A stretch of 15,358 nucleotides of DNA from Candidatus Helarchaeota archaeon (lineage in GTDB: Archaea > Asgardarchaeota > Lokiarchaeia > Helarchaeales > RDOG01), in the NCBI GenBank assembly GCA_029838215.1, contig JALGVI010000070.1, forward strand, positions 2,215-17,572. Reading direction: 5' to 3'. Made by a program: the position numbers and the translations under genes. Of this stretch, positions 1 through 11,392 are shown one piece after another. Every line of letters begins with the position of its first letter. Positions within the stretch are counted from its first letter, which is position 1. The notes under the pieces were generated by a model. That model saw only the letters and a program-made list of their open reading frames with translations, was not told the DNA's origin and did not search any database.

Positions 1-555
1 GTCATTGAGTCTGTCTGTAAGGGATGTGGTGTCTGTGCTGCAGGATGTCCGGCTGATGCAATAACCATCAAGCACTTTACAAATCAACAAATAAATAACA
101 TGATAGATGTTGCGCTGACAAATCCCGCTTTGAAAACAGAACCAAAAATCATCGCATTTTTATGTAATTGGTGCAGCTATGCAGGTGCGGATAATGCAGG
201 AGTAAGTCGATTTCAATATTCTCCATCAGTACGCGTGATTCGGGTAATGTGTTCGGGCCGAATCAACATCTTGCATCTTCTTGAAGCATTTAAAGCTGGT
301 GCAGATGGCGTGATGGTTTTGGGTTGTCATATTGGTGACTGCCATTATATTTCCGGTAACCTGCACGCTCAAAGACGGGTAAATATGGCAAAACGTCTCG
401 TGGAGCTAGCAGGCATTAATCCCGAGCGTTTAAAATTGGAATGGGTAAGTGCTGCTGAAGGTAAAAAATTTGCTCAATTAATTAATGATTTCATCGCTGA
501 ACTTGAAGAAATGAAAAAGAATGAAAACATGTTCCTCATGCACAAACTGAAATAG
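1..555 (+). CDS. hdrA-mvhD: 3' end of an HdrA-MvhD fusion protein, 5'-truncated by the window: last HdrA ferredoxin motif plus a complete MvhD [2Fe-2S] domain
   Basis: Frame 1 is open from base 1, upstream of the ORF-track ATG at 100. It reads VIESVCKGCGVCAAGCPADAITIKHFTNQQINNMID (CxxCxxCxxxCP plus the typical HdrA C-terminal tail), then IIAFLCNWCSYAGAD...RVMCSGR...GCHIGDCHY...WVSAAEG (MvhD). TAG stop at 553-555. Confidence 0.93.
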   Translation, partial: VIESVCKGCGVCAAGCPADAITIKHFTNQQINNMIDVALTNPALKTEPKIIAFLCNWCSYAGADNAGVSRFQYSPSVRVIRVMCSGRINILHLLEAFKAGADGVMVLGCHIGDCHYISGNLHAQRRVNMAKRLVELAGINPERLKLEWVSAAEGKKFAQLINDFIAELEEMKKNENMFLMHKLK

Positions 556-558
556 GTA

Positions 559-3500
559 TTGACCGTGTCTGAAGTCAAGTTAAATGCTGTTCTCATAATT
601 GGTGCGGGAATAGGAGGCATGGATGCCGCCCTTGATTTAGCTGAGGCTGGACATCGCGTGTATCTCGTGGAGAAGACGGCTGCCATTGGAGGAAATTACG
701 CTCGCGTGTATAAGGTATTTCCTCTTGACGAATGTTCTGCTTGTGTCTTAACTCCTAAGATGAATGCCGTGGGAAAGCATCCTAACATCACGCTCTTAAC
801 TCTTTCAACAATTACCAAGATTGAAGGTGTTGCGGGTGATTTTCAAGTAACGATTCATAAGAAGCCGCGTTACGTCGATGAATCTAAATGCACCGGGTGT
901 GGCAGGTGTATTGAAGCATGTCCCGTGGAGGTTCTACATGAATATAACTATGGTTTGAATAAACGCAAGGCCATTTACTTGGATTTTGCCCAACAAATTC
1001 CATTCGTCACGACAATTGATAAAAATAATTGTATTAATTGCAGGATGTGCGAAAAAACCTGTTTGGCAAAAGCCATTAATCATGAAATGGAAGAAGAATT
1101 TCTAAATCTGAATGTTGGTGCCATTATCATTTCTACGGGTTTCGAGGAATTTGATCCCTCTGAAAAATTGCCTCAATTGGGTTATAAGCGTCATAAGAAT
1201 GTCATTACATCAATGATGTATGAGAGAATGACGCATCCTGCTGGTTTAGATAATGTCGTTCGTCCTTCTGATGGAAAGCGCATTAAAAGAGCTGTTTTTG
1301 TAAATTGCATTGGGGCTAGAGACGAACAAATTGGAAATACATATTGCAATAAGGCATGTTGCATGTTTAGCATGAAAAATGCCAGGAATCTTCACCATCA
1401 TGAAGAAGATGCTGAAATCTTCATTTCTTACATTGACATTCGATCGGCTGGAAAGCTCTATGAATTGTATTATCGTTCGACAATGCAAGATTATGGCATT
1501 AAATTCTTGCGAGGAAAGGTTGCAGAAGTACTGGAAGATCCTAAAACGAGAGATTTAACGGTGCGTTTAGAAGACACGGAAACGGCGGAGCCCATGACGA
1601 TAGATGACGTGGATCTGGTTGTTTTAAACTGTTCATTCCGTCCTTCTGAGGGTACATTAGAAATTGCTCGGCTATTGAATTTAGAAACTGAAGATGATGG
1701 CTTTATTAAAGAGTATAAGTTTGAAAATGGTGCCATCTCCACTTCAATTGCAGGGATTTATCTCGCAGGTGCAGCTCATGGTCCCAAAGATGGGTCTGAT
1801 ACAATTGTTGAAGCCAAGGCTGCGGCATCTGCTGCTGCAACACATCTCATCCAACCCGAAGCCCAGCTCGAAGTCACAAAATCCACCGTTTCCGATCCAA
1901 ATTATGTTCCAAAAGTGGGTGTTTTCGTCTGTCATTGTGGAGGAATCATTTCCTCTGTGGTTGATGTTAAAAAAGTCGTCGAAGAAATTAAAAAAGAGCC
2001 AAATGTTTCCTTTATCACCGATTATTTGTTCATGTGTTCAAGTCCTGGTCAAGACCTCATTAGAAACAATGCCAACAAATTCAATCGAGTATTGGTCTGT
2101 TCATGTTCTCCTGCAATTCATGAAAAAACATTCCGTAATTGCGTGGAAGATGTTGGAATGTCACGATTTCACTTCACGGGACCAATGAATATCCGCGAAC
2201 AGTGTGCAATGGTGCATAAAGATGATCATGAAAAAGCAACCGAAAAAGCCATTGAACTCATTCGGGGTGGGATTGCAAGAGTTGCAAGGCTTCAAGCCGT
2301 TCCAATTAGAAAGATTGATTTTGTGAACAGCGTGCTGATAATTGGAGGTGGTGTCGCAGGGTTGAACGCTGCTCTAGACTCTGCAAAAAGAGGGATGAGT
2401 GTTCATTTAATAGAAAAAGAATCGAGATTGGGTGGACGACTCACTCGCCTTTATAAACTCTTCCCTCACGGTGATCTTGCTCAAGACATTTTGAAGAAAC
2501 TATTTGATGATGTTGAAAAAGATCCAAACATAACGATTCACTTGGAGACCGAAATCGAAGAGATGACGGGACACGTTGGAAATTATGTAATAACGCTAAA
2601 TCAAAAAGGCAATCGCAACACGATAAATGTTGGTGGAGTGATTGTTTCAATTGGAACGAAAGCATACACACCTCAATTAGGGGAATACGGGTACGGACAA
2701 CATGAAAGAGTTCTCACTTCGCTTGAATTCGAAGAGAAATTGAGAAATGATGAAGAAATAAATCCTAAAAATGTTATATTCATACAATGTGTTGGATCCC
2801 GAGCGTATCCCGGTGAAGCTGGTAATGTTCACTGTTCTCGTGTTTGTTGTAACGTATCTCTAATAAATGCTGAAGTATTAAAAGAAAAATTTCCGACCTG
2901 TAATGTTCACGTCTTGTACAAGGAACACTTCCGTGCATTTGGAAGATACATGGAAGAAAAGTATAAAGCACTCATGATGCGGGGCGTGACCTTTACAAGG
3001 TTTAAAAAAGATGAAAAACCCGAAGTAATTGTAAACGGGGATAAAATCGAAATCAAATATCACGATTCACTTTTAAATAAATCATTTCACGAAGAGATTG
3101 ATTACCTGATCCTTTCTGTTGGACAAGAAGCCCCTGATGGGATTGAAAAATTATGTGAAGTGCTGGGCATCACGCGTTCGCAAGATGGTTTTGTTGAAGA
3201 AATGCACATAAAATTCCGCCCTGTAGAAACAAAAGTCCCCGGTGTTTTTACGTCAGCAAGCTTCCCAAAGGATGTTGCCGATACGATCAACATGGCGAGG
3301 GGTGCTGCTTCTGGCATTCATCAACTTCAGAAAGGTATTGAATTGGAGATGATCATTGCAGAGGTAAATGAAGATTTGTGTGTTGGATGTGGTTTATGCG
3401 AATCGATTTGTGCGTATGATGCCATTACAATGAAAGAAACTTCGCCCGGCAAATGGATTTCTGTTACTGATGAAATTCAATGCGCGGGATGCGGAACGTG

Positions 3501-3591
3501 TGTTGCTTCCTGCCCTGTCGGTGCGAGAGACCTCCGCTGGTGGCGAGACGAACAATTTCTGGCTCAAATTGAAGCCATATTACGTGAATGA
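559..3591 (+). CDS. hdrA: Tandem (double-flavin) HdrA-family protein, 1010 aa
   Basis: Module 1 (aa ~9-432): GAGIGG..VEK..IGG, FPLDECSAC, inserted ferredoxin CTGCGRCIEACP / CINCRMCEKTC, cluster motif CIGARD..CNKACC, GIYLAGAAHGPKD. Module 2 (aa ~452-1010): N-terminal domain GVFVCHCG..C..CSCSP..NIREQC, GGGVAG..IEK..LGG, CVGSR..CSRVCC, C-terminal ferredoxin CVGCGLCESIC / CAGCGTCVASCP. The start is TTG at 559 or GTG at 565 (AGGT at 554-557 favours 565). Confidence 0.93.
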   Translation: MTVSEVKLNAVLIIGAGIGGMDAALDLAEAGHRVYLVEKTAAIGGNYARVYKVFPLDECSACVLTPKMNAVGKHPNITLLTLSTITKIEGVAGDFQVTIHKKPRYVDESKCTGCGRCIEACPVEVLHEYNYGLNKRKAIYLDFAQQIPFVTTIDKNNCINCRMCEKTCLAKAINHEMEEEFLNLNVGAIIISTGFEEFDPSEKLPQLGYKRHKNVITSMMYERMTHPAGLDNVVRPSDGKRIKRAVFVNCIGARDEQIGNTYCNKACCMFSMKNARNLHHHEEDAEIFISYIDIRSAGKLYELYYRSTMQDYGIKFLRGKVAEVLEDPKTRDLTVRLEDTETAEPMTIDDVDLVVLNCSFRPSEGTLEIARLLNLETEDDGFIKEYKFENGAISTSIAGIYLAGAAHGPKDGSDTIVEAKAAASAAATHLIQPEAQLEVTKSTVSDPNYVPKVGVFVCHCGGIISSVVDVKKVVEEIKKEPNVSFITDYLFMCSSPGQDLIRNNANKFNRVLVCSCSPAIHEKTFRNCVEDVGMSRFHFTGPMNIREQCAMVHKDDHEKATEKAIELIRGGIARVARLQAVPIRKIDFVNSVLIIGGGVAGLNAALDSAKRGMSVHLIEKESRLGGRLTRLYKLFPHGDLAQDILKKLFDDVEKDPNITIHLETEIEEMTGHVGNYVITLNQKGNRNTINVGGVIVSIGTKAYTPQLGEYGYGQHERVLTSLEFEEKLRNDEEINPKNVIFIQCVGSRAYPGEAGNVHCSRVCCNVSLINAEVLKEKFPTCNVHVLYKEHFRAFGRYMEEKYKALMMRGVTFTRFKKDEKPEVIVNGDKIEIKYHDSLLNKSFHEEIDYLILSVGQEAPDGIEKLCEVLGITRSQDGFVEEMHIKFRPVETKVPGVFTSASFPKDVADTINMARGAASGIHQLQKGIELEMIIAEVNEDLCVGCGLCESICAYDAITMKETSPGKWISVTDEIQCAGCGTCVASCPVGARDLRWWRDEQFLAQIEAILRE

Positions 3592-3594
3592 GGA
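3589..3594 (+). promoter_or_regulatory. Stop codon overlapping the Shine-Dalgarno site (TGAGGA) of mvhD
   Basis: TGA 3589-3591 and GAGGA 3590-3594, 6 nt before ATG 3601. Confidence 0.6.
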
Positions 3595-3600
3595 AAAAAA

Positions 3601-4017
3601 ATGCCCCCGAGAAAGCCCGTCATAGTATTGTTTGCTTGCATGCAGTGTAGTTATACGGCACTCGACCTTGCAGGTACCTTGAAAATACAATACGATCCGA
3701 TCGTCCGAGTCGTGCGCTTTCCTTGTACGGGACGAATTGACATCATACATATATTAAAAGCAATTGTAAACGGGGCAGATGCTGTCGTCGTGGCTCCTTG
3801 TCATAAAGGAGATTGTGCTTATAAACTGGGGAATTTGGCTGCTGATAGACGCGTTCGATTCGTGAAACATCTTCTCAAGGAATTGAACATTGATCCGAGA
3901 AGGGTTCAAATTCATTTCGTAAGTGCCGCAGAGGGTGCTAAAATTGCCGAAGTTGTAAACCAAGTCGCAAAAGAAGTTGTTGAAGAAATCGGACCAAGTC
4001 CTTTTCGAAAAAAATGA
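3601..4017 (+). CDS. mvhD: Stand-alone MvhD ([2Fe-2S] hydrogenase delta/Hdr adaptor subunit)
   Basis: FACMQCSY..DLAG....QY....RVVRFPCTGRID....GAD.V....CHKGDCAY..GN...FVSAAEG. GAGGA RBS at 3590-3594. Confidence 0.93.
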   Translation: MPPRKPVIVLFACMQCSYTALDLAGTLKIQYDPIVRVVRFPCTGRIDIIHILKAIVNGADAVVVAPCHKGDCAYKLGNLAADRRVRFVKHLLKELNIDPRRVQIHFVSAAEGAKIAEVVNQVAKEVVEEIGPSPFRKK

Positions 4018-4032
4018 AGAAGGATCGCATTA

Positions 4033-4317
4033 ATGAGTCAAGATAAAAAGGAAGAATTGAATAAAATCATAAAAAAATTGGAAGAAACCAAAGATTCTAA
4101 AAGTTTAGAGTGGAAACGCATCGTTGAAGCCAATAAAGAAGAATTTGAGTCCATAAAATCCGCTATTAAAGAAAAACAGCAAGAATTAAAGACATTGGTA
4201 CAACGAAAAAGAGCTTTACAAATAAATAACGATGAATTTGAAGAAAGAGTCAATAAGATTCAGGATGAATTGACCGAGCTAGAATCAAAAATCCTGACCA
4301 TGAGAATGTCGTTTTGA
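4033..4317 (+). CDS. Hypothetical 94-aa Lys/Glu-rich coiled-coil protein
   Basis: Fills the gap between mvhD and the next hdrA-like gene, on the same strand, with AAGGA ~8 nt before the ATG. It has heptad-like hydrophobic spacing (e.g. FEERVNKIQDELTELESKILTM) and no Cys. Confidence 0.75.
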   Translation: MSQDKKEELNKIIKKLEETKDSKSLEWKRIVEANKEEFESIKSAIKEKQQELKTLVQRKRALQINNDEFEERVNKIQDELTELESKILTMRMSF

Positions 4318-4320
4318 GGA
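4315..4320 (+). promoter_or_regulatory. Stop codon overlapping the Shine-Dalgarno site (TGAGGA) of the hdrA-like half subunit
   Basis: TGA 4315-4317 and GAGGA 4316-4320, before ATG ATG at 4326/4329. Confidence 0.6.
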
Positions 4321-4325
4321 AAAAC

Positions 4326-5615
4326 ATGATGAAAAAAGCGTGCATAATTGGATCCGGGTTAAGTGCTTTGAATGCTGCCGTTGAGTTGGCAGATTCGGGA
4401 ATCGAAGTAACGGTAATAAGCAGGGATCGGTATGCGGGTGAAAATGCCCCCAATTTATATAAGGCATTTCCAACTGATGATTGTTTCTTCTGCGTTTCGG
4501 CAACAAGACTCAAGGATGGCATTCGAAAATGCTTTTATCGTTCCGGGATTTTTGAGCATCCAAATATTAAAATGTATTTTGATTCTAAAGTCGAAAGCAT
4601 CGAAGGGAATGGGCCTTTTCTCATTAAAATGCAGGAGGGTCCCATTTATATCGATCACGAAAAATGCATTCAATGTGGAGCTTGCGAGGAGGCTTGCCCT
4701 AAAACCATTCAGCTGAAGAGAAAGCTACAAATGACTCGTAGAAAAGCAATATATCATCGACTTCAATGTCTTCCATATTCTTACTATATTGATCGCGAAG
4801 CGTGTCCTCCCGATTGTGAAGAATGCATTAAAGCCTGTCCTGTAGAAGGTGTAATTAATCTAAATGCTCCCCCAAAGCATCTTGAACTTGAAGCAAGCGT
4901 CATCATTTTGGCGTTATCCTATAAGGAATTCGATCCCACTAATCTAACTCAATTGCATTATAACACGTATAAAAACGTCATCACGCAGGTTCAACTGGCT
5001 CGCATGCTAGATCCAACGGGTCCAACCGAAGGCAAGATCGTCCGTCGTTCAGATAATCGTCCCGCAAAAAGAATTTTCATGTTACAGTGCGTGGGATCAC
5101 GAGATGTGGAAAACCTACCGTATTGTAGCGAAATTTGTTGTACTTTTGCCTGTAAACATGCGTTAATAATAAAGAATGAGCGAGAACCAGAAACTCAAGT
5201 CTCAATCATTTACAAGGACATCCGGACTCTTGGTTTACAAGAAAAATATTATCGTGAAGCCCGAGATTCTGGAATTGATTTCGTAAAAGGGCATTTATCG
5301 CTCGTCAAGGAGCTTTCTGATGGAACGCTTGAGTTATTAATTTATGATGCCCTGCTAAACAAGTTAGTTCGTTGTCCAGCAGACCTTTTAATACTTTCGG
5401 CAGGATTGATGCCTTCCGAAAATGCTCTTGATTTGTTATCGATTGCGAATATTTCGCTTGATGATTTCAAGTTCACTGTAAAAGATCTCGATCTTGTTGA
5501 GACAAATCGAAAAGGGATTTATGCCATCGGCTCTATCGTGAAACCGCTCTCAATTCCCGAAGCCTCCATCTTGGCAAAGGCGGCTACATTCAAAATATTA
5601 GAGAATTTTACTTGA
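4326..5615 (+). CDS. hdrA: HdrA-like 'half' subunit (flavin-fold domain plus inserted 2x[4Fe-4S] ferredoxin) with a degenerate FAD-binding site; QmoA-sized
   Basis: GSGLSA..AA, YKAFPTDDCFFC, CIQCGACEEACP, CPPDCEECIKACP, CVGSRD..CSEICC, DIRTLG, GIYAIG. It has no N-terminal cluster domain and no C-terminal ferredoxin. The ORF track starts at TTG 4314, but GAGGA at 4316-4320 favours ATG 4326 or 4329. Confidence 0.85.
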   Translation: MMKKACIIGSGLSALNAAVELADSGIEVTVISRDRYAGENAPNLYKAFPTDDCFFCVSATRLKDGIRKCFYRSGIFEHPNIKMYFDSKVESIEGNGPFLIKMQEGPIYIDHEKCIQCGACEEACPKTIQLKRKLQMTRRKAIYHRLQCLPYSYYIDREACPPDCEECIKACPVEGVINLNAPPKHLELEASVIILALSYKEFDPTNLTQLHYNTYKNVITQVQLARMLDPTGPTEGKIVRRSDNRPAKRIFMLQCVGSRDVENLPYCSEICCTFACKHALIIKNEREPETQVSIIYKDIRTLGLQEKYYREARDSGIDFVKGHLSLVKELSDGTLELLIYDALLNKLVRCPADLLILSAGLMPSENALDLLSIANISLDDFKFTVKDLDLVETNRKGIYAIGSIVKPLSIPEASILAKAATFKILENFT

Positions 5616-5618
5616 GGA
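5613..5618 (+). promoter_or_regulatory. Stop codon overlapping the Shine-Dalgarno site (TGAGGA) of the 696-aa hdrA-mvhD
   Basis: TGA 5613-5615 and GAGGA 5614-5618, 7 nt before ATG 5626. Confidence 0.6.
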
Positions 5619-5625
5619 TTCATCC

Positions 5626-7716
5626 ATGCCCGAGAAAAAAGTCAAAATATTTACTTGCACGTGTGGCAAGACGCTCATGTCTGCTTTGGATTTTTCGAGA
5701 ATCCAAATTGAGTTACGAGATCAAGGGCTAGATGTAGAAATTAAGGATGTGTTATGCGATGAGCCGGGAATGGAATTACTGGCAGGGAGTCTTCAGGAAG
5801 GATTTGATCGTTTTATATTAGCAGCCTGCACGCCTCAGAAAATCGAGATGAAACTCCAGAATTATTTAAGGTCAAAAAGACTCGATCCGCACTCTTTTGA
5901 TGTAGTCAACATTCGAGAACAGTGCGCTTGGGTACATGATGACATTAATTCGGCAACAAATAAGGTGATTGCTCTAGTTAAAGCCTCATTTAGAAAGGAA
6001 CAGATCGCCTCTGCAATTGATCGAAAAGAATTCAACCTTTCAAAGGAAATTATCGTGATTGGTGGTGGAATTGCTGGTCTTCAAGCAGCCATTGATCTTA
6101 GTTCTTTAGGTTTCAACACGAAAATTTTAGAAAAAAGCTCTGAGGTTGGTGGACAGGTAAAAAATATCTCCAGAACCTTTCCTACTGGAAGGGTTGGGAA
6201 AGAAATCATCTCGGAAAAAATCAAGCTCATCCAAGAAAGAAACATACAAATCATGACTGATTGCAAGATAAATTGGATTTCTGGCCATCTAGGCAATTTC
6301 CAAATTAATTGCATGAAAGATGGGAAAGAAACGACACTTGAGTGTGCAGCTCTCGTGATAGCTACTGGTCACGAAGTATATCGTCCGTTTGACATGAAAC
6401 AATATAAATATGCTGAGATTCCTGGCATAATGACTTTGGACGAATTATCTAACAAGCTGGCTGATGAAGACTACTGCACCGATGAATTGAAAAGTCCTTT
6501 AACGGGCAAACCTGTAAGAAACTTATTCTTCATTCAATGTATCGGAAGCAGGGACACGTCGAGATTTAATTATTGTAGCGAATATTGTTGCATGTCTGCG
6601 ATTAATCATGCAATTGAACTTAAAGAAGCAATGCCTGATTTGGATGTAAAAATTAGTTATTTTGATATTAGAACACCGTATGAAGAAGAACTGAAATACA
6701 CGCAAGCGAGAAGTCTCGGAATCGATTTTATCCGTGGAAGGGTTGGTTCCGTAGAAGCACGAGATCACTCCTTGACAGTATCTGTTTTTGATACACATCT
6801 GGGGAAGCATTTTAAACTTCCTGCGGATATGATTGTTCTTTCTACACCCCTTTGCCCCGTTTCTGACAATAATAACCTATTCCAAATGCTTAACTTGAAT
6901 TTTACGAGTGATGGATTTCTCAAGGATTATTATTCTAAGCTCAGACAAGTTGAAACAAATCGTAAGGGAATTTTTATTTGTGGAACTGTCAGCGGTCCAA
7001 AGACAATTTCGAAATCCGTCGCCGAAGCACATGCTGTTGCGCTCAGGGTCAATCAACTCTTTCAAGATGGTCGTTTCGAAAAGGATCTGACCATAACTAA
7101 AATTGATCTTGAAACCTGTAATGGGTGCGGTTTATGCGTGCGAGTGTGTCCCTTTAACATTCCTGTCCTGATCGAGGAAGATGAAGAAAAAGCCTACGCA
7201 ATGATTGACGAATTACAATGTAAAGGTTGCGGTATATGTGCAAGCCTCTGTCCGACAGGTGCCGCTCAGCTTCAATCCTATCAACGTGATCAAATTCTAA
7301 TTCAAATCGAAGAACTTTTGAGCGATGCAAGCCCTAACAACCCTCTAATTATTGGATTTGTTTGTGATGAATGCGCATATGCTACTGTCGATTCCGTGGG
7401 AATTTTGCGGAAGAAATATCCGACAAATATCCGTTTGATTCGCTTACCCTGTTTGGGACGACTTTCTCTCCTTGATATCTTTAAAGCGTATGAAGAGGGT
7501 GCAGGTGGTGTCTTGCTACTTGGTTGTGCCGAAGATAGATGCCATTATTTAGAAGGAAACACAAAAATCGGGTATGAAGTTGAAATTGCTAAAGAAATTT
7601 TCAAGGCAATTGGACTGGATCCCGACACTCTCGAATACATACCCCTATTTTCTGCAGAACCCGATAAATTTCTCGAAGCCGTGAATAGAATGGCAATGAA
7701 GTTAAAATCCGTGTGA
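5626..7716 (+). CDS. hdrA-mvhD: HdrA-MvhD fusion (N-terminal cluster domain + FAD domain + C-terminal ferredoxin + MvhD); QmoB-like architecture
   Basis: CTCG..C..AACTP..NIREQCAWVH, GGGIAG..LEK..VGG, CIGSRD..CSEYCC, CNGCGLCVRVCP / CKGCGICASLCP, then MvhD from ~7342 (IIGFVCDECAY..PCLGR..GCAEDRCHYLEGN). It lacks the post-TFP CxxC and the inserted ferredoxin. Confidence 0.92.
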   Translation: MPEKKVKIFTCTCGKTLMSALDFSRIQIELRDQGLDVEIKDVLCDEPGMELLAGSLQEGFDRFILAACTPQKIEMKLQNYLRSKRLDPHSFDVVNIREQCAWVHDDINSATNKVIALVKASFRKEQIASAIDRKEFNLSKEIIVIGGGIAGLQAAIDLSSLGFNTKILEKSSEVGGQVKNISRTFPTGRVGKEIISEKIKLIQERNIQIMTDCKINWISGHLGNFQINCMKDGKETTLECAALVIATGHEVYRPFDMKQYKYAEIPGIMTLDELSNKLADEDYCTDELKSPLTGKPVRNLFFIQCIGSRDTSRFNYCSEYCCMSAINHAIELKEAMPDLDVKISYFDIRTPYEEELKYTQARSLGIDFIRGRVGSVEARDHSLTVSVFDTHLGKHFKLPADMIVLSTPLCPVSDNNNLFQMLNLNFTSDGFLKDYYSKLRQVETNRKGIFICGTVSGPKTISKSVAEAHAVALRVNQLFQDGRFEKDLTITKIDLETCNGCGLCVRVCPFNIPVLIEEDEEKAYAMIDELQCKGCGICASLCPTGAAQLQSYQRDQILIQIEELLSDASPNNPLIIGFVCDECAYATVDSVGILRKKYPTNIRLIRLPCLGRLSLLDIFKAYEEGAGGVLLLGCAEDRCHYLEGNTKIGYEVEIAKEIFKAIGLDPDTLEYIPLFSAEPDKFLEAVNRMAMKLKSV

Positions 7717-7720
7717 GGAG
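7714..7720 (+). promoter_or_regulatory. Stop codon overlapping the Shine-Dalgarno site (TGAGGAG) of the 738-aa gene
   Basis: TGA 7714-7716 and GAGGAG 7715-7720, 9 nt before ATG 7730. Confidence 0.6.
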
Positions 7721-7729
7721 CAATTATCA

Positions 7730-9946
7730 ATGTTTGAATCCGAATCCCTGGAAATTCCCAAGAAGAGAAAAATCCTATACGATTTTATCTGGAAAATGAT
7801 TGAAATTCAGAAGGCAAAGGAAGTTTCCATGGCAATTTCGGATCAGGACTTGGTAGTTAAAGAATTAAATCTTTTATATTCAAAATTTGAAGATTTTGAC
7901 AATAAAATATTGAATAAATTTCAAGATTTAGCCGAAGAAAAGCTTAACGTGGCTGCACTAAAACGTTTTTTGGAAAAAATGACACCTCTTGCAACTACAA
8001 TTCCTGAAGAAGTTTCTTTATTGAATTCTGTAAGTATAATTCTAAAAGAAAAACATCAACCTCTTGAATCTGACGTGCAGAAGCCCGGTCTTTCCCAAGA
8101 TTCAAATCAAATCATCACGCGCTTACAAAAGATTGGTGGAATTTTATCTAATCTCGAAATTGATCTTGGTCGAATATCAAGCATTCAAGAAAAGCAAAGG
8201 AAAGAAATCTTGGAAGAAAATGAAGCTAAATTAGTTGAATTAAAAAGAATTAGTACTAAATTCAAGCAACTGGAATCCCAACAAGACGTAAATGCGCTTT
8301 TTAACATGCTTCAGGAAAGCAGTCGCCAGTTACGTTATCAACCGCTTTTGTATTCAATTAGTCAAATATCGCGATCCTATAAAGATGGGCGCATCTCTGC
8401 AGAAAAAGCACGAAACCTCTTCGACCTTGTCTTATATCAAAAATTCACCGAAGCACTCGTATTCAATGTTCTTCTTTTAATTGAGAAGGCATCTCCTGGA
8501 GAAATCGCAACCCTAGTGGGAATTGAAACCGATAGAGTCTTTCAAGCCCTTCTGACTCTTATTGACGATGGGAAAATAGAAGGCCGCATGGAAGATTCCA
8601 CCTATTTTCCAATAAAAAAGGAAATTCTTCTCCAAAAATCTATATCAAATTTAAAAAAGGCACTCACTTACTTAATTAAAACTTCATCAAACGAAATTGT
8701 GTCAATAATCGATGAAATAATTCGAAAAATTGATGACATTGACAAAATTTTATTGAAAATCCGCGATCTTGATGAAACACCTTTCCAAACCTCCTTACAA
8801 GAGATTAATGAAATGGTGTCATTCATTAACTTGGATCTTGGAGGAGCGTCTTCTTCCGAAAATATCATTAAATCTCGTTTAGATGGGATGATTGAAGCAA
8901 TAAAACTGGGTCGTCTTTACAAGATAATAGAAAAAGAGCAAATTTTGATTGAAGAAGAGAAAGTTCCCGAGAATCTGGTCGAAAGGATTACCGATGCTTC
9001 CATCATTACAGATTACAAGCGCGGCTTGATATTAAGTACTTTACGTACTAAAGGTGCTCTTTCTCTCCCAGAGTTAACAAATATTACGGGATTACCGTCG
9101 AATGAATTATTCATTGAGCTCCAAGACCTAAAAAATGCCGACTTGATAACCATTGTTGGCGAACGTGAAGGCTATCATCTTTTTGACATTCCCCGCATCC
9201 TGACGCCAGATGAACTATTCGTAGATGACTTCATTGAAAAAAGAATGAATGCGTATGATCTCATTTTAAATTTGGAAGAACAAGGAAAAAATATCGAGAG
9301 AAACTTTCATTCGATAAAAAACACTTTAACCTCTTTACGAATACTGGTTAAATCATTCGATTCTCTTTCATTTGATGGGCTTGAGTTCGGAAATCTATTT
9401 GCTGAATCTTTTCTGAACGTCATTTCGGAAGTTCAAGAAACATTTTCAAAAATTAAGACTACTGTTAAGGTTGGAAAGATAGAAATCGATTTTGATAAAC
9501 TCGTCCCCATTCCAATTCCACAAACTGAGGATGAGTTCGCACATCTTATCGAGCCAACAGAATTAATGGGCTTCGGGACTATCGAATGCAATGAAAGTTT
9601 ATGTCTTACGTGTGGAAAGTGTGAGTCCGTATGCCCTGAAGGGGCTGCAATCTTGAAACAGGAATGGAATATTCCTCTCTTTTTCAAGCTTACTGATGAA
9701 GAATTAAAAGCATTACCTGAAAATAGACGAATGTTAATTCAATCCTTGAGAAATATTGCGAAAAAAACGCCAGAACGCCCGATTCTGATTCCTCGTAATG
9801 CAAAGGGTTATGGGCGTGCAACTTTTAATCCCATGAAATGCATTGCGTGTAAGGAATGCGTCGATAAATGTCCAATAGAAGCGATCACGTTTGAAGAAAT
9901 ATGGAATTTTCCTGAAGTCTTGAAAGGAATCTTAAAATTGACGTAA
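7730..9946 (+). CDS. Unrecognised 738-aa protein: helical/coiled-coil regions, two putative winged-helix domains and a C-terminal 2x[4Fe-4S] ferredoxin domain
   Basis: Long ORF with GAGGAG RBS at 7715-7720. CLTCGKCESVCP at 9602-9637 and CIACKECVDKCP at 9839-9874. HTH-like segments at ~8447-8611 (SPGEIATLVGIETDRVFQALLTLIDDGKIEG) and ~9002-9187 (LSLPELTNITGLPSNELFIELQDLKNADLI). The CDS is confident; the wHTH calls are by eye. Confidence 0.85.
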   Translation: MFESESLEIPKKRKILYDFIWKMIEIQKAKEVSMAISDQDLVVKELNLLYSKFEDFDNKILNKFQDLAEEKLNVAALKRFLEKMTPLATTIPEEVSLLNSVSIILKEKHQPLESDVQKPGLSQDSNQIITRLQKIGGILSNLEIDLGRISSIQEKQRKEILEENEAKLVELKRISTKFKQLESQQDVNALFNMLQESSRQLRYQPLLYSISQISRSYKDGRISAEKARNLFDLVLYQKFTEALVFNVLLLIEKASPGEIATLVGIETDRVFQALLTLIDDGKIEGRMEDSTYFPIKKEILLQKSISNLKKALTYLIKTSSNEIVSIIDEIIRKIDDIDKILLKIRDLDETPFQTSLQEINEMVSFINLDLGGASSSENIIKSRLDGMIEAIKLGRLYKIIEKEQILIEEEKVPENLVERITDASIITDYKRGLILSTLRTKGALSLPELTNITGLPSNELFIELQDLKNADLITIVGEREGYHLFDIPRILTPDELFVDDFIEKRMNAYDLILNLEEQGKNIERNFHSIKNTLTSLRILVKSFDSLSFDGLEFGNLFAESFLNVISEVQETFSKIKTTVKVGKIEIDFDKLVPIPIPQTEDEFAHLIEPTELMGFGTIECNESLCLTCGKCESVCPEGAAILKQEWNIPLFFKLTDEELKALPENRRMLIQSLRNIAKKTPERPILIPRNAKGYGRATFNPMKCIACKECVDKCPIEAITFEEIWNFPEVLKGILKLT

Positions 9947-9958
9947 TTGGTGATGAAA

Positions 9959-10507
9959 ATGAATGAATTTAATACAACTCCGGAATTTACCGAGTGCTTG
10001 ACTGAAGAAGATTTAGATCCGAATTTCAAGCACGAAATTGCGGCAATGCCTGATGGAAAAACCATCCTTGCCTGTTATCAATGTGGTACCTGCTCTTCAA
10101 GTTGTCCAATAACGTGTGTTGCCGAATTTGCACCCAGTCAAATCATTCGAATGGCTCTACTCGGCTTAAAGAAACCACTTTTAGAGTCTGAAGCAATAAA
10201 CTCCGTTTGGCTTTGTGCTACTTGCGGGACTTGTATTGAGAGATGTCCTCAAGGCGTAGAAGTCACTAACGTGCTTCATGCCATTAAAAACTACATCTTC
10301 AAGACATTACAGAAAATTCCAAAAGGACTCAAGGTTGTTTCCGAGACCATTGTAGAACTAGGACGATCCATCGAGATATCTGACTTTCAAGAAGATGAGC
10401 GAGACGATCTTGACCTACCTGCAGTTCCCGAAGCTGATGTCGAAAGTGTTAGAACCATATTAAAAGATACTGAGATAGGAAAGAGATTCATGGAAAAGGA
10501 GGAATGA
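9959..10507 (+). CDS. hdrC: Heterodisulfide reductase subunit C (2x[4Fe-4S])
   Basis: CYQCGTCSSSCP..P..IIRMA.LG....VWLCATCGTCIERCPQGV. The ORF track starts at TTG 9947, but GGTGA at 9949-9953 favours ATG 9959. Confidence 0.95.
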   Translation: MNEFNTTPEFTECLTEEDLDPNFKHEIAAMPDGKTILACYQCGTCSSSCPITCVAEFAPSQIIRMALLGLKKPLLESEAINSVWLCATCGTCIERCPQGVEVTNVLHAIKNYIFKTLQKIPKGLKVVSETIVELGRSIEISDFQEDERDDLDLPAVPEADVESVRTILKDTEIGKRFMEKEE

Positions 10508-10510
10508 TGT

Positions 10511-11392
10511 ATGGATTATGCTTATTTTTTGGGATGTACCGTTCCTGCAAGGACCAATCAATACGATGCAGCTACCCGGAAAGTCGCCGAAAAACTAGGA
10601 ATTGGATTAAATGACATTGAAGGTGCTAGCTGTTGCGGTTTAAATTTCAAGTATCTTGATCGTAAAGCATGGCTTCTGATGGCTGCTAGAAACATCGTGC
10701 TTGCAGAACGAATGAACATGAACATCATGACCTTATGTAATGGATGCTACGAAACATTGAAGGAAGTGAATCACGAGCTTAAGTTACACGATTCTCTACG
10801 CCAAGACATGAACAAGACATTACAAAAAGTGGGTTTGGAATTTCAAGGAACCATCGAGATCCTCCATCTGGTTGACGTTCTTGCCGGGCTGGACAAAGAA
10901 CTTATCCGTTCCAAGTTCTCAATTCCTTTAAAAGGTTTGAAAGTAGCCGTTCATTATGGATGTCACCTATTAAAGCCATCTAGAATAATTCAATTCGACG
11001 ACCCCGAGAATCCTCATGTCCTAGACGACCTCGTGGAGCTTACAGGTGCAAAAGCTGTTGCGTGGGATGATAAACTCACCTGTTGTGGTGGACCTCTTCT
11101 TTCCGTGAATGAAGACCTATCCGTCCGACTGGCTCTCGATAAGTTTAAAGGTGCCCATTCCGCCGGAGCCGACATCCTGCTAAGCGTTTGTCCTTTTTGC
11201 ACGATTCAATTTGATCTCATTCAATTAAAAGTCCAAGAGAAATATAATTTGGATTTCGAAATACCCGTGATCTTCTTGCCTCAACTTTATGGGCTTGCAA
11301 TGGGAATGGACCCTGACGAATTAGGTGTTGAGCTACATCGGATTCCACTGGAGGATGTTATCGAATCGATTCAGGAAGCTACTACCGAATAG
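10511..11392 (+). CDS. hdrB: Heterodisulfide reductase subunit B (two CCG domains)
   Basis: YFLGC..SCCG..LCNGCY and VAVHYGCH..TCCGG..VCPFC: both five-Cys CCG domains are complete. C-terminal PV..LPQL.GLAMG tail. GGAGGA RBS at 10498-10503. Confidence 0.96.
   Translation: MDYAYFLGCTVPARTNQYDAATRKVAEKLGIGLNDIEGASCCGLNFKYLDRKAWLLMAARNIVLAERMNMNIMTLCNGCYETLKEVNHELKLHDSLRQDMNKTLQKVGLEFQGTIEILHLVDVLAGLDKELIRSKFSIPLKGLKVAVHYGCHLLKPSRIIQFDDPENPHVLDDLVELTGAKAVAWDDKLTCCGGPLLSVNEDLSVRLALDKFKGAHSAGADILLSVCPFCTIQFDLIQLKVQEKYNLDFEIPVIFLPQLYGLAMGMDPDELGVELHRIPLEDVIESIQEATTE

Follow-up and report, generated by a model that had tools for sequence, protein, structure and literature searches.

How is HdrA, which in its canonical form is a homodimer, built in an archaeon that encodes it in halves, each without part of the usual domain set? 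The question is raised by a 15,358-nucleotide stretch of DNA from Candidatus Helarchaeota archaeon (assembly GCA_029838215.1, contig JALGVI010000070.1, positions 2,215 to 17,572 of the forward strand; the window hereafter), which encodes a 1010-amino-acid (aa) double HdrA and, downstream of it, separate HdrA-like proteins of 433 and 696 aa. In both arrangements one half, termed A-type, has what the other, termed B-type, lacks, and the reverse. The sequences suggest that the two halves most likely pair as a pseudo-dimer in which a single electron circuit is functional. We consider it highly probable that each such unit is equivalent to one circuit of the interlocked pair in the canonical homodimer.

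Domain composition of the HdrA modules

Four elements have to be followed: the thioredoxin-reductase-like core (TrxR), the N-terminal cluster domain (NTD), the ferredoxin (Fd) inserted into the core, and the C-terminal ferredoxin (CFd). The HdrA-type features of the window are as follows.

1..555, + strand: 3' end (CFd and MvhD) of a third asymmetric unit, a fused A-B-MvhD HdrA, recognized by domain scans
559-3591, + strand: the 1010-aa double HdrA (TrxR, inserted Fd, TrxR, then NTD, TrxR, CFd)
559..1893, + strand: its module 1, residues 1-445, A-type by PDB alignment, motifs and structural match
1894..3591, + strand: its module 2, residues 446-1010, B-type by PDB alignment, motifs and structural match
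4314..5615, + strand: short A-type subunit, 433 aa (TrxR, inserted Fd, TrxR)
5626..7716, + strand: long B-type subunit, 696 aa (NTD, TrxR, CFd, MvhD)

Residue numbers of the HdrA type (C194, C197, C386, K409 and so on) were set by alignment to solved HdrA chains. In this numbering the CxxC motif reads FPxDxC194xxC197, position 197 being given as X (unknown residue) in 9SFI, and the ligands of the [4Fe-4S] cluster in the TrxR domain are C386, C399, C403 and C404. K409 contacts N5 of the flavin adenine dinucleotide (FAD) that bifurcates (PMC6405883).

Module 1 of the 1010-aa protein has a TrxR-like FAD domain with the motif PLDEC59SAC62, Lys273 and the TrxR cluster cysteines C250, C263, C267 and C268, and an inserted 2x[4Fe-4S] ferredoxin spanning C111-C168; neither NTD nor CFd was found in it by domain scans or PDB alignment. 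Module 2 has the NTD cysteines C458, C460, C493 and C516, a C-terminal 2x[4Fe-4S] ferredoxin and its own TrxR cluster cysteines, with FPHGDL replacing the CxxC motif and Ile769 at the Lys409 site; the same two methods found no inserted ferredoxin in it. Against solved HdrA in the PDB, residues 11-430 of the protein correspond to HdrA 146-565 (TrxR core plus inserted ferredoxin), residues 451-607 to HdrA 4-161 (the N-terminal domain), and residues 846-1009 to HdrA 485-651.

The two separate subunits divide in the same manner. The 433-aa protein contains FPTDDCFFC (C57xxC60), the Lys409 equivalent, the TrxR cluster cysteines and the inserted ferredoxin; domain scans and alignment found neither NTD nor CFd, and its alignment to 5ODC covers residues 142-557 only. 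The 696-aa protein has FPTGRV at the CxxC site and Asn at position 409, its CFd is followed by a fused MvhD, and no inserted ferredoxin was found by domain scans or alignment. In the Methanothermobacter chain 8RVU, whose numbering runs about 11 above that of 5ODC, it matches residues 9-244 and 321-656, skipping the inserted ferredoxin. In HdrA numbering, A-type modules thus extend over ~142-565 and B-type modules over 1-~245 and ~320-652.

All four modules of the window keep GxGxx[GA] and the four TrxR cluster cysteines and so belong to the HdrA superfamily, with PDB matches at E-values of 1e-77 to 1e-206. Against the NCBIfam equivalogs for canonical HdrA/HdrA2 (NF041778 and NF040770) the scores were 941, 535 and 310 bits, below the cut-off of 1100; the proteins fall outside these equivalogs, each module being without part of the set NTD-TrxR-inserted Fd-CFd. 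An earlier sequence-only reading of the window had quoted the motifs DECSAC, DDCFFC, FPHGDL and FPTGRV, all of which are present, and its account of which domains occur in the three proteins agrees with the domain scans and PDB alignments. It had described two asymmetric HdrA pairs, one fused and one split. That pattern is real, and the count was too low: the third unit at 1-555 had been overlooked. This upstream unit is at least 922 aa long and extends beyond the contig start, and its orthologues are ~1150 aa long with the order A-B-MvhD. As judged from domain content, the operon encodes three asymmetric HdrA units, of which two are A-B fusions in a single chain and the third is a pair of separate A and B genes.

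Complementarity across 52 modules

The comparison was extended to 52 modules, drawn from the source genome and from the orthologous operons of six genomes of the same order. C194, C197, K409, the TrxR cysteines and 8-10 cysteines of the inserted ferredoxin are kept in all 25 A-type modules, and an NTD or CFd is found in none of them (0/25). All 27 B-type modules are without both CxxC cysteines and keep 8-9 CFd cysteines; the NTD cysteines are retained in 26/27, and K409 is mostly replaced. The asymmetry is that described by Chadwick et al., with Cys197 but no NTD in one half, the reverse in the other, and the halves either fused or adjacent. With no exception across the 52 aligned modules, chance is ruled out as the source of the A/B complementarity. 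Among 40 fused homologues (37-63% identical to the 1010-aa protein and ranging from Asgard archaea to Methanocellales), C59, C62 and K273 are invariant, as are the cluster-ligand cysteines of every site except C763 in the second TrxR domain, which is conserved in at least 90%.

One split B-type subunit of the source genome, of 735 aa (C92:16910-19114(+)), has lost the NTD cysteines and the TrxR cluster cysteines and keeps CFd and MvhD. This partner has degenerated further and its branch is very long.

Predicted structure of the fused protein

The 1010-aa protein was modeled as a single chain with AlphaFold2 from a 40-sequence alignment. The model has a mean predicted local distance difference test score (pLDDT) of 88.5 and a predicted template modeling score (pTM) of 0.89, and is weak only in the 430-450 linker. 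Module 1 (residues 3-433) superimposes on HdrA 142-584 with Z 36 and a root-mean-square deviation (rmsd) of 1.4-1.6 Å. Module 2 (residues 449-1010) matches the whole 5ODC chain, residues 2-652, with Z 31 and 2.9 Å rmsd over 554 residues, as an HdrA without the inserted ferredoxin. The sequence-only reading had called for superposing a model of this chain on the HdrA2 dimer; the model indicates a confidently packed body of two modules in one compact chain, and its pTM lends indirect support to physical pairing of the A and B halves.

Proposed electron circuit of the pseudo-dimer

Drawing on the Wagner structure, Chadwick et al. 2022 (PMC9012536) described canonical HdrA as a homodimer in which the N-terminal cluster of a protomer is completed by its partner's Cys197, and the trans-ligating cysteine named in the sequence-only reading matches that description. 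The same authors came to the same pseudo-dimer interpretation for anaerobic methanotrophic archaea (ANME) and Moorella. The wiring proposed here has been shown experimentally in a colinear fused HdrA, in an electron cryomicroscopy (cryo-EM) preprint on BamE (10.64898/2026.04.10.717634).

What we infer for the Helarchaeota-type units comprises the pairing of the 433-aa with the 696-aa subunit, the ligation in trans, the direction of electron flow and the nature of the substrates. Electrons would enter at MvhD, pass through the C-terminal ferredoxin of the B half and reach the A-half flavin with Lys at the N5 position, where electron pairs would be split. The high-potential branch would pass by way of the TrxR cluster in the A half and on to HdrC and HdrB. 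The low-potential branch would run through the CxxC motif and the trans-completed N-terminal cluster to the inserted ferredoxin of the A half, the putative exit. The B half would contribute this N-terminal cluster, completed by the second CxxC cysteine of the A half, as well as the docking or fusion of MvhD. Each unit is predicted to hold seven [4Fe-4S] clusters and two flavin sites, because both halves keep the TrxR-domain cluster cysteines, with bifurcation probably at the A site only. The single electron wire of the sequence-only reading is supported by the work of Chadwick et al. and by BamE; its statement that a pair has just one set of Fe-S domains does not hold strictly, as the TrxR cluster is present in both halves.

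Four observations weigh against this interpretation. The 433-aa subunit and its orthologue from the same family have a weakened FAD fingerprint, with GxGxxA and Ser in place of the Glu/acidic residue. Lys409 persists in 7 of the 27 B modules, including that of the operon's upstream fused unit, so that a second active flavin may exist in those. The operon has three HdrA units to a single HdrCB pair, and no donor enzyme was found among its genes. As to the first of these, the acidic residue concerned stands at the end of strand 2, and GxGxxG and Glu/Asp are kept in five orthologues from the other two families.

Comparison with known systems

The closest parallel is BamE of the class II benzoyl-CoA reductase (BCRII) from Geobacter metallireducens, to which the 1010-aa protein was compared through the text of the preprint. 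Both are single-chain fused HdrA dimers with the A half first. Cys59-Cys62 and Lys280 at flavin N5 in the first TrxR domain of BamE are paralleled by C59/C62 and K273, and the non-bifurcating FAD at Gln768 in its second TrxR domain by Ile769 at the second flavin site. BamE has seven [4Fe-4S] clusters (E1-E7) and two FAD, and the 1010-aa protein has seven sets of cysteines. Electrons enter BamE at an MvhD-like adaptor and the C-terminal ferredoxin and leave by way of its inserted ferredoxin and of a subunit resembling HdrBC, and the same layout is predicted for the operon. By A-first order, CxxC and Lys in the first TrxR domain, a residue other than Lys in the second, and seven cluster sites, the protein is of the BamE type. 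However, HdrC and HdrB are separate genes here but a BamD fusion in Geobacter, and the host is an archaeon. No family match to the BamBC tungsten or BamGHI modules was obtained among the open reading frames (ORFs) scanned at 1-11392, which leaves the locus outside BCRII.

The same complementary pattern of Cys197, NTD and CFd occurs in the tandem HdrA5/6 and 12/13 and the fused HdrA3/4 of ANME, and in the fused HdrA of Moorella MetFV-HdrABC-MvhD (PMC9012536), for which Chadwick et al. 2022 proposed that two-fold symmetry is broken in a heterodimer or self-heterodimer. In ANME HdrA3/4 the NTD-bearing half comes first, whereas the Cys197-bearing half does so in the fusions of the source genome. 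Unlike in ANME, fused and split forms lie in one operon and the host has no mcrA match. A short HdrA-like flavoprotein beside a long HdrA-MvhD protein, followed by hdrCB, is also reminiscent of QmoA/QmoB, as the sequence-only reading had remarked, and QmoAB is followed by HdrBC in Gram-positive sulfate reducers (PMC10504309). In contrast to QmoA/QmoB, the short subunit here carries an inserted 2x[4Fe-4S] ferredoxin and the operon is without aprAB, dsr and qmoC. With canonical HdrA/HdrA2 of methanogens (5ODC, 7BKB, 8RVU and 9SFI) all domains and cluster ligands are homologous, at 38-43% identity in structural alignments, but each window protein lacks part of the domain set.

The operon and its genomic context

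The window very probably carries the greater part of a conserved operon of nine genes from a Helarchaeota-type Asgard archaeon. Nine genes lie head-to-tail on the + strand at 1-11392, with tiny or overlapping intergenic gaps; 10 nt separate the genes of the 433-aa and 696-aa subunits. The members other than those listed above are:

3601..4017, + strand: stand-alone MvhD (FlpD) [2Fe-2S] adaptor, Cys form, from domain scans
4033..4317, + strand: 94-aa coiled-coil protein, Cys-free, at the same position in 7/7 operons
7730..9946, + strand: 738-aa winged-helix / coiled-coil protein with two C-terminal [4Fe-4S] motifs, a conserved operon member
9947..10507, + strand: HdrC, from domain scans
10511..11392, + strand: HdrB with two CCG domains, from domain scans

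The order fused A-B-MvhD, fused A-B, MvhD, coiled coil, short A, long B-MvhD, 738-aa protein, HdrC, HdrB is kept in all seven genomes of this order, and the genes of the 433-aa and 696-aa types are adjacent in every one. Orthologues of the 433-aa subunit at E <=1e-80 were present in 6/6 genomes searched from the same order and in 0/24 genomes of other families of the same class. The closest homologues of the 1010-aa protein bear the names Hodarchaeota, Helarchaeota, Lokiarchaeota and Promethearchaeota (62%), then Thorarchaeota (46%). For the 738-aa protein, found at the same position in all seven genomes, family matches are limited to the ferredoxin motifs and one weak TrmB match. In the sister families the motif VG-U-HxGDC of the stand-alone MvhD includes an in-frame TGA that presumably encodes selenocysteine; the source genome and a relative from the same family have Cys at that site (APCHKGDC, VGCHKGDC).

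The source genome (3.6 Mb, 170 contigs, 94% complete) contains six A-B fusions, one of them frameshifted or truncated, three split A plus B pairs and seven canonical HdrAs. Symmetry-broken HdrA predominates in it, with nine asymmetric units against seven canonical ones, and the A half comes first in all six fused copies. The defective fusion (C39:3-2439(-)) has a frameshift between the inserted ferredoxin and the second TrxR part and is truncated where the contig stops; a pseudogene and an error of assembly are the two explanations. The idea that it supplies the absent beginning of the operon's upstream gene, on C10, was rejected, the two having 46% identity and no DNA overlap. Three canonical HdrA genes (C12:26234-28141(-), C110:16547-18454(-) and C144:10370-12268(+)) have a single in-frame TGA, presumably selenocysteine, exactly at position 197 (FPTDDCCIU), the position of the Cys that ligates the partner's N-terminal cluster; no asymmetric A-type module has TGA there. 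In all, the genome has at least 16 HdrA-type units and 72 CCG-domain matches, which represent ~36 HdrB/HdrD-like proteins. Most of the other HdrA units adjoin a CCG protein of their own, and the one match to a [NiFe]-hydrogenase large subunit is elsewhere in the genome.

Alternative arrangements and functions

Canonical HdrA is homodimeric and the BamE protomers dimerize further (10.64898/2026.04.10.717634), so that like-with-like dimers (A2, B2, or fused chains arranged head-to-tail between molecules) have precedent in place of A:B pseudo-dimers. A B2 dimer, however, would lack the fourth ligand of its N-terminal cluster and an A2 dimer would be without an electron-entry domain, and together with the perfect complementarity in 52 modules and the pTM of 0.89 for a compact single chain this makes such dimers very improbable. 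We give even less credence to the split pair as a QmoAB-type module that works with HdrBC to deliver electrons to adenosine 5'-phosphosulfate (APS) reductase. The QmoA/QmoB-like architecture and the described QmoAB-HdrBC arrangements (PMC10504309) speak for it. The sequence-only reading had seen no aprAB in the window, and a search of the 94%-complete genome likewise gave no match to aprA, dsrA or DsrC (nor to mcrA), so a Qmo role is hardly to be expected; the operon also has no qmoC-type membrane subunit, the short subunit has its inserted ferredoxin, and the top family matches are methanogen-type HdrA and HdrA2. The architectural likeness and the hdrCB order therefore stand, but not a Qmo function. 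For Helarchaeota, recycling of CoM-S-S-CoB after alkane activation has been proposed (PMC6478937); as a role in the source genome it is unsupported, since mcrA was not matched in this 94%-complete assembly.

In a further alternative the three units would not act on their own: together with the 738-aa Fe-S protein, the 94-aa coiled coil, one HdrBC and a total of three MvhD domains, they could assemble into a multi-flavin megacomplex coupling several bifurcation/confurcation steps. The strict nine-gene order in seven of seven genomes with its close spacing, the single HdrCB serving three HdrA units, and the coupling of two bifurcation modules in BCRII (10.64898/2026.04.10.717634) would all fit such an assembly. 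Yet the adjacent CCG proteins of most other HdrA units suggest that autonomy is possible, and the three units could be alternative isoenzymes using a common HdrBC. We regard the megacomplex as a tentative idea that is probably not correct.

Evolutionary origin of the split pair

The TrxR-core tree comprised 55 rows and 345 columns under LG+C20, after removal of four long-branch rows from a 59-row set. In the 55-row tree the fused B halves form a clade with 100/100 support, the fused A halves group together (88/89; in the 59-row tree they stand beside three canonical HdrAs), and the split pair on C39 falls within the fused type. The split A and split B lineages of the operon are sisters (99/97), and in quick trees they adjoin the canonical HdrA at C62. 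The approximately unbiased (AU) test on 55 rows rejected a single A-type clade (p = 0.001) and did not reject a single B-type clade (p = 0.14); on the full 59 rows it was indecisive (p = 0.052 and p = 0.16, respectively). The sequence-only reading had set as a tree criterion that the two A-type halves should be each other's closest paralogues; they are not, the nearest relative of the 433-aa subunit in the tree being its 696-aa partner. The result speaks against a shared origin of the asymmetric types and leaves the pseudo-dimer untouched. The sister grouping could be inflated by long-branch attraction of the split lineages or by co-evolution of partner subunits.

A separate origin is consistent with two independent traits. 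At position 356 every fused A half has Glu, as do 14 of 18 fused B halves and six of seven canonical HdrAs; Ala, Val, Ser or Gly stands there in the split A and split B modules and in the canonical HdrA at C62. In one sister family, moreover, the long B subunit retains an intact inserted ferredoxin with 8-9 Cys, and for this reason the split lineage must have lost that ferredoxin independently of the fused B halves, however the deep branches are resolved. The asymmetry of the split pair thus probably arose independently of the fused type. A fuller scenario, in which the asymmetric design arose twice, a canonical HdrA was separately duplicated and its copies underwent reciprocal loss to give the split pair, and the three units, three MvhD, the 738-aa Fe-S adaptor and one HdrBC form a single multi-flavin machine, appears unlikely.

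Implications

The design principle itself is not new, having been predicted by Chadwick et al. 2022 for ANME and Moorella and seen in the 2026 cryo-EM preprint on BamE. Specific to the present case are the grouping of three units within a single conserved operon of Helarchaeota type, the fusions with the A half in front and the probable second origin of the split pair. With ~36 HdrB/D-like proteins and at least 16 HdrA units, the Hdr-type inventory is very large for a 3.6-Mb genome in which mcrA, aprA, dsrA and DsrC were not matched, and the conserved operon is a good target for finding what Hdr-type complexes reduce in such an Asgard archaeon. Reciprocal loss between HdrA halves probably evolved more than once, which would argue that a single directional circuit was selected for and did not come about by accident.

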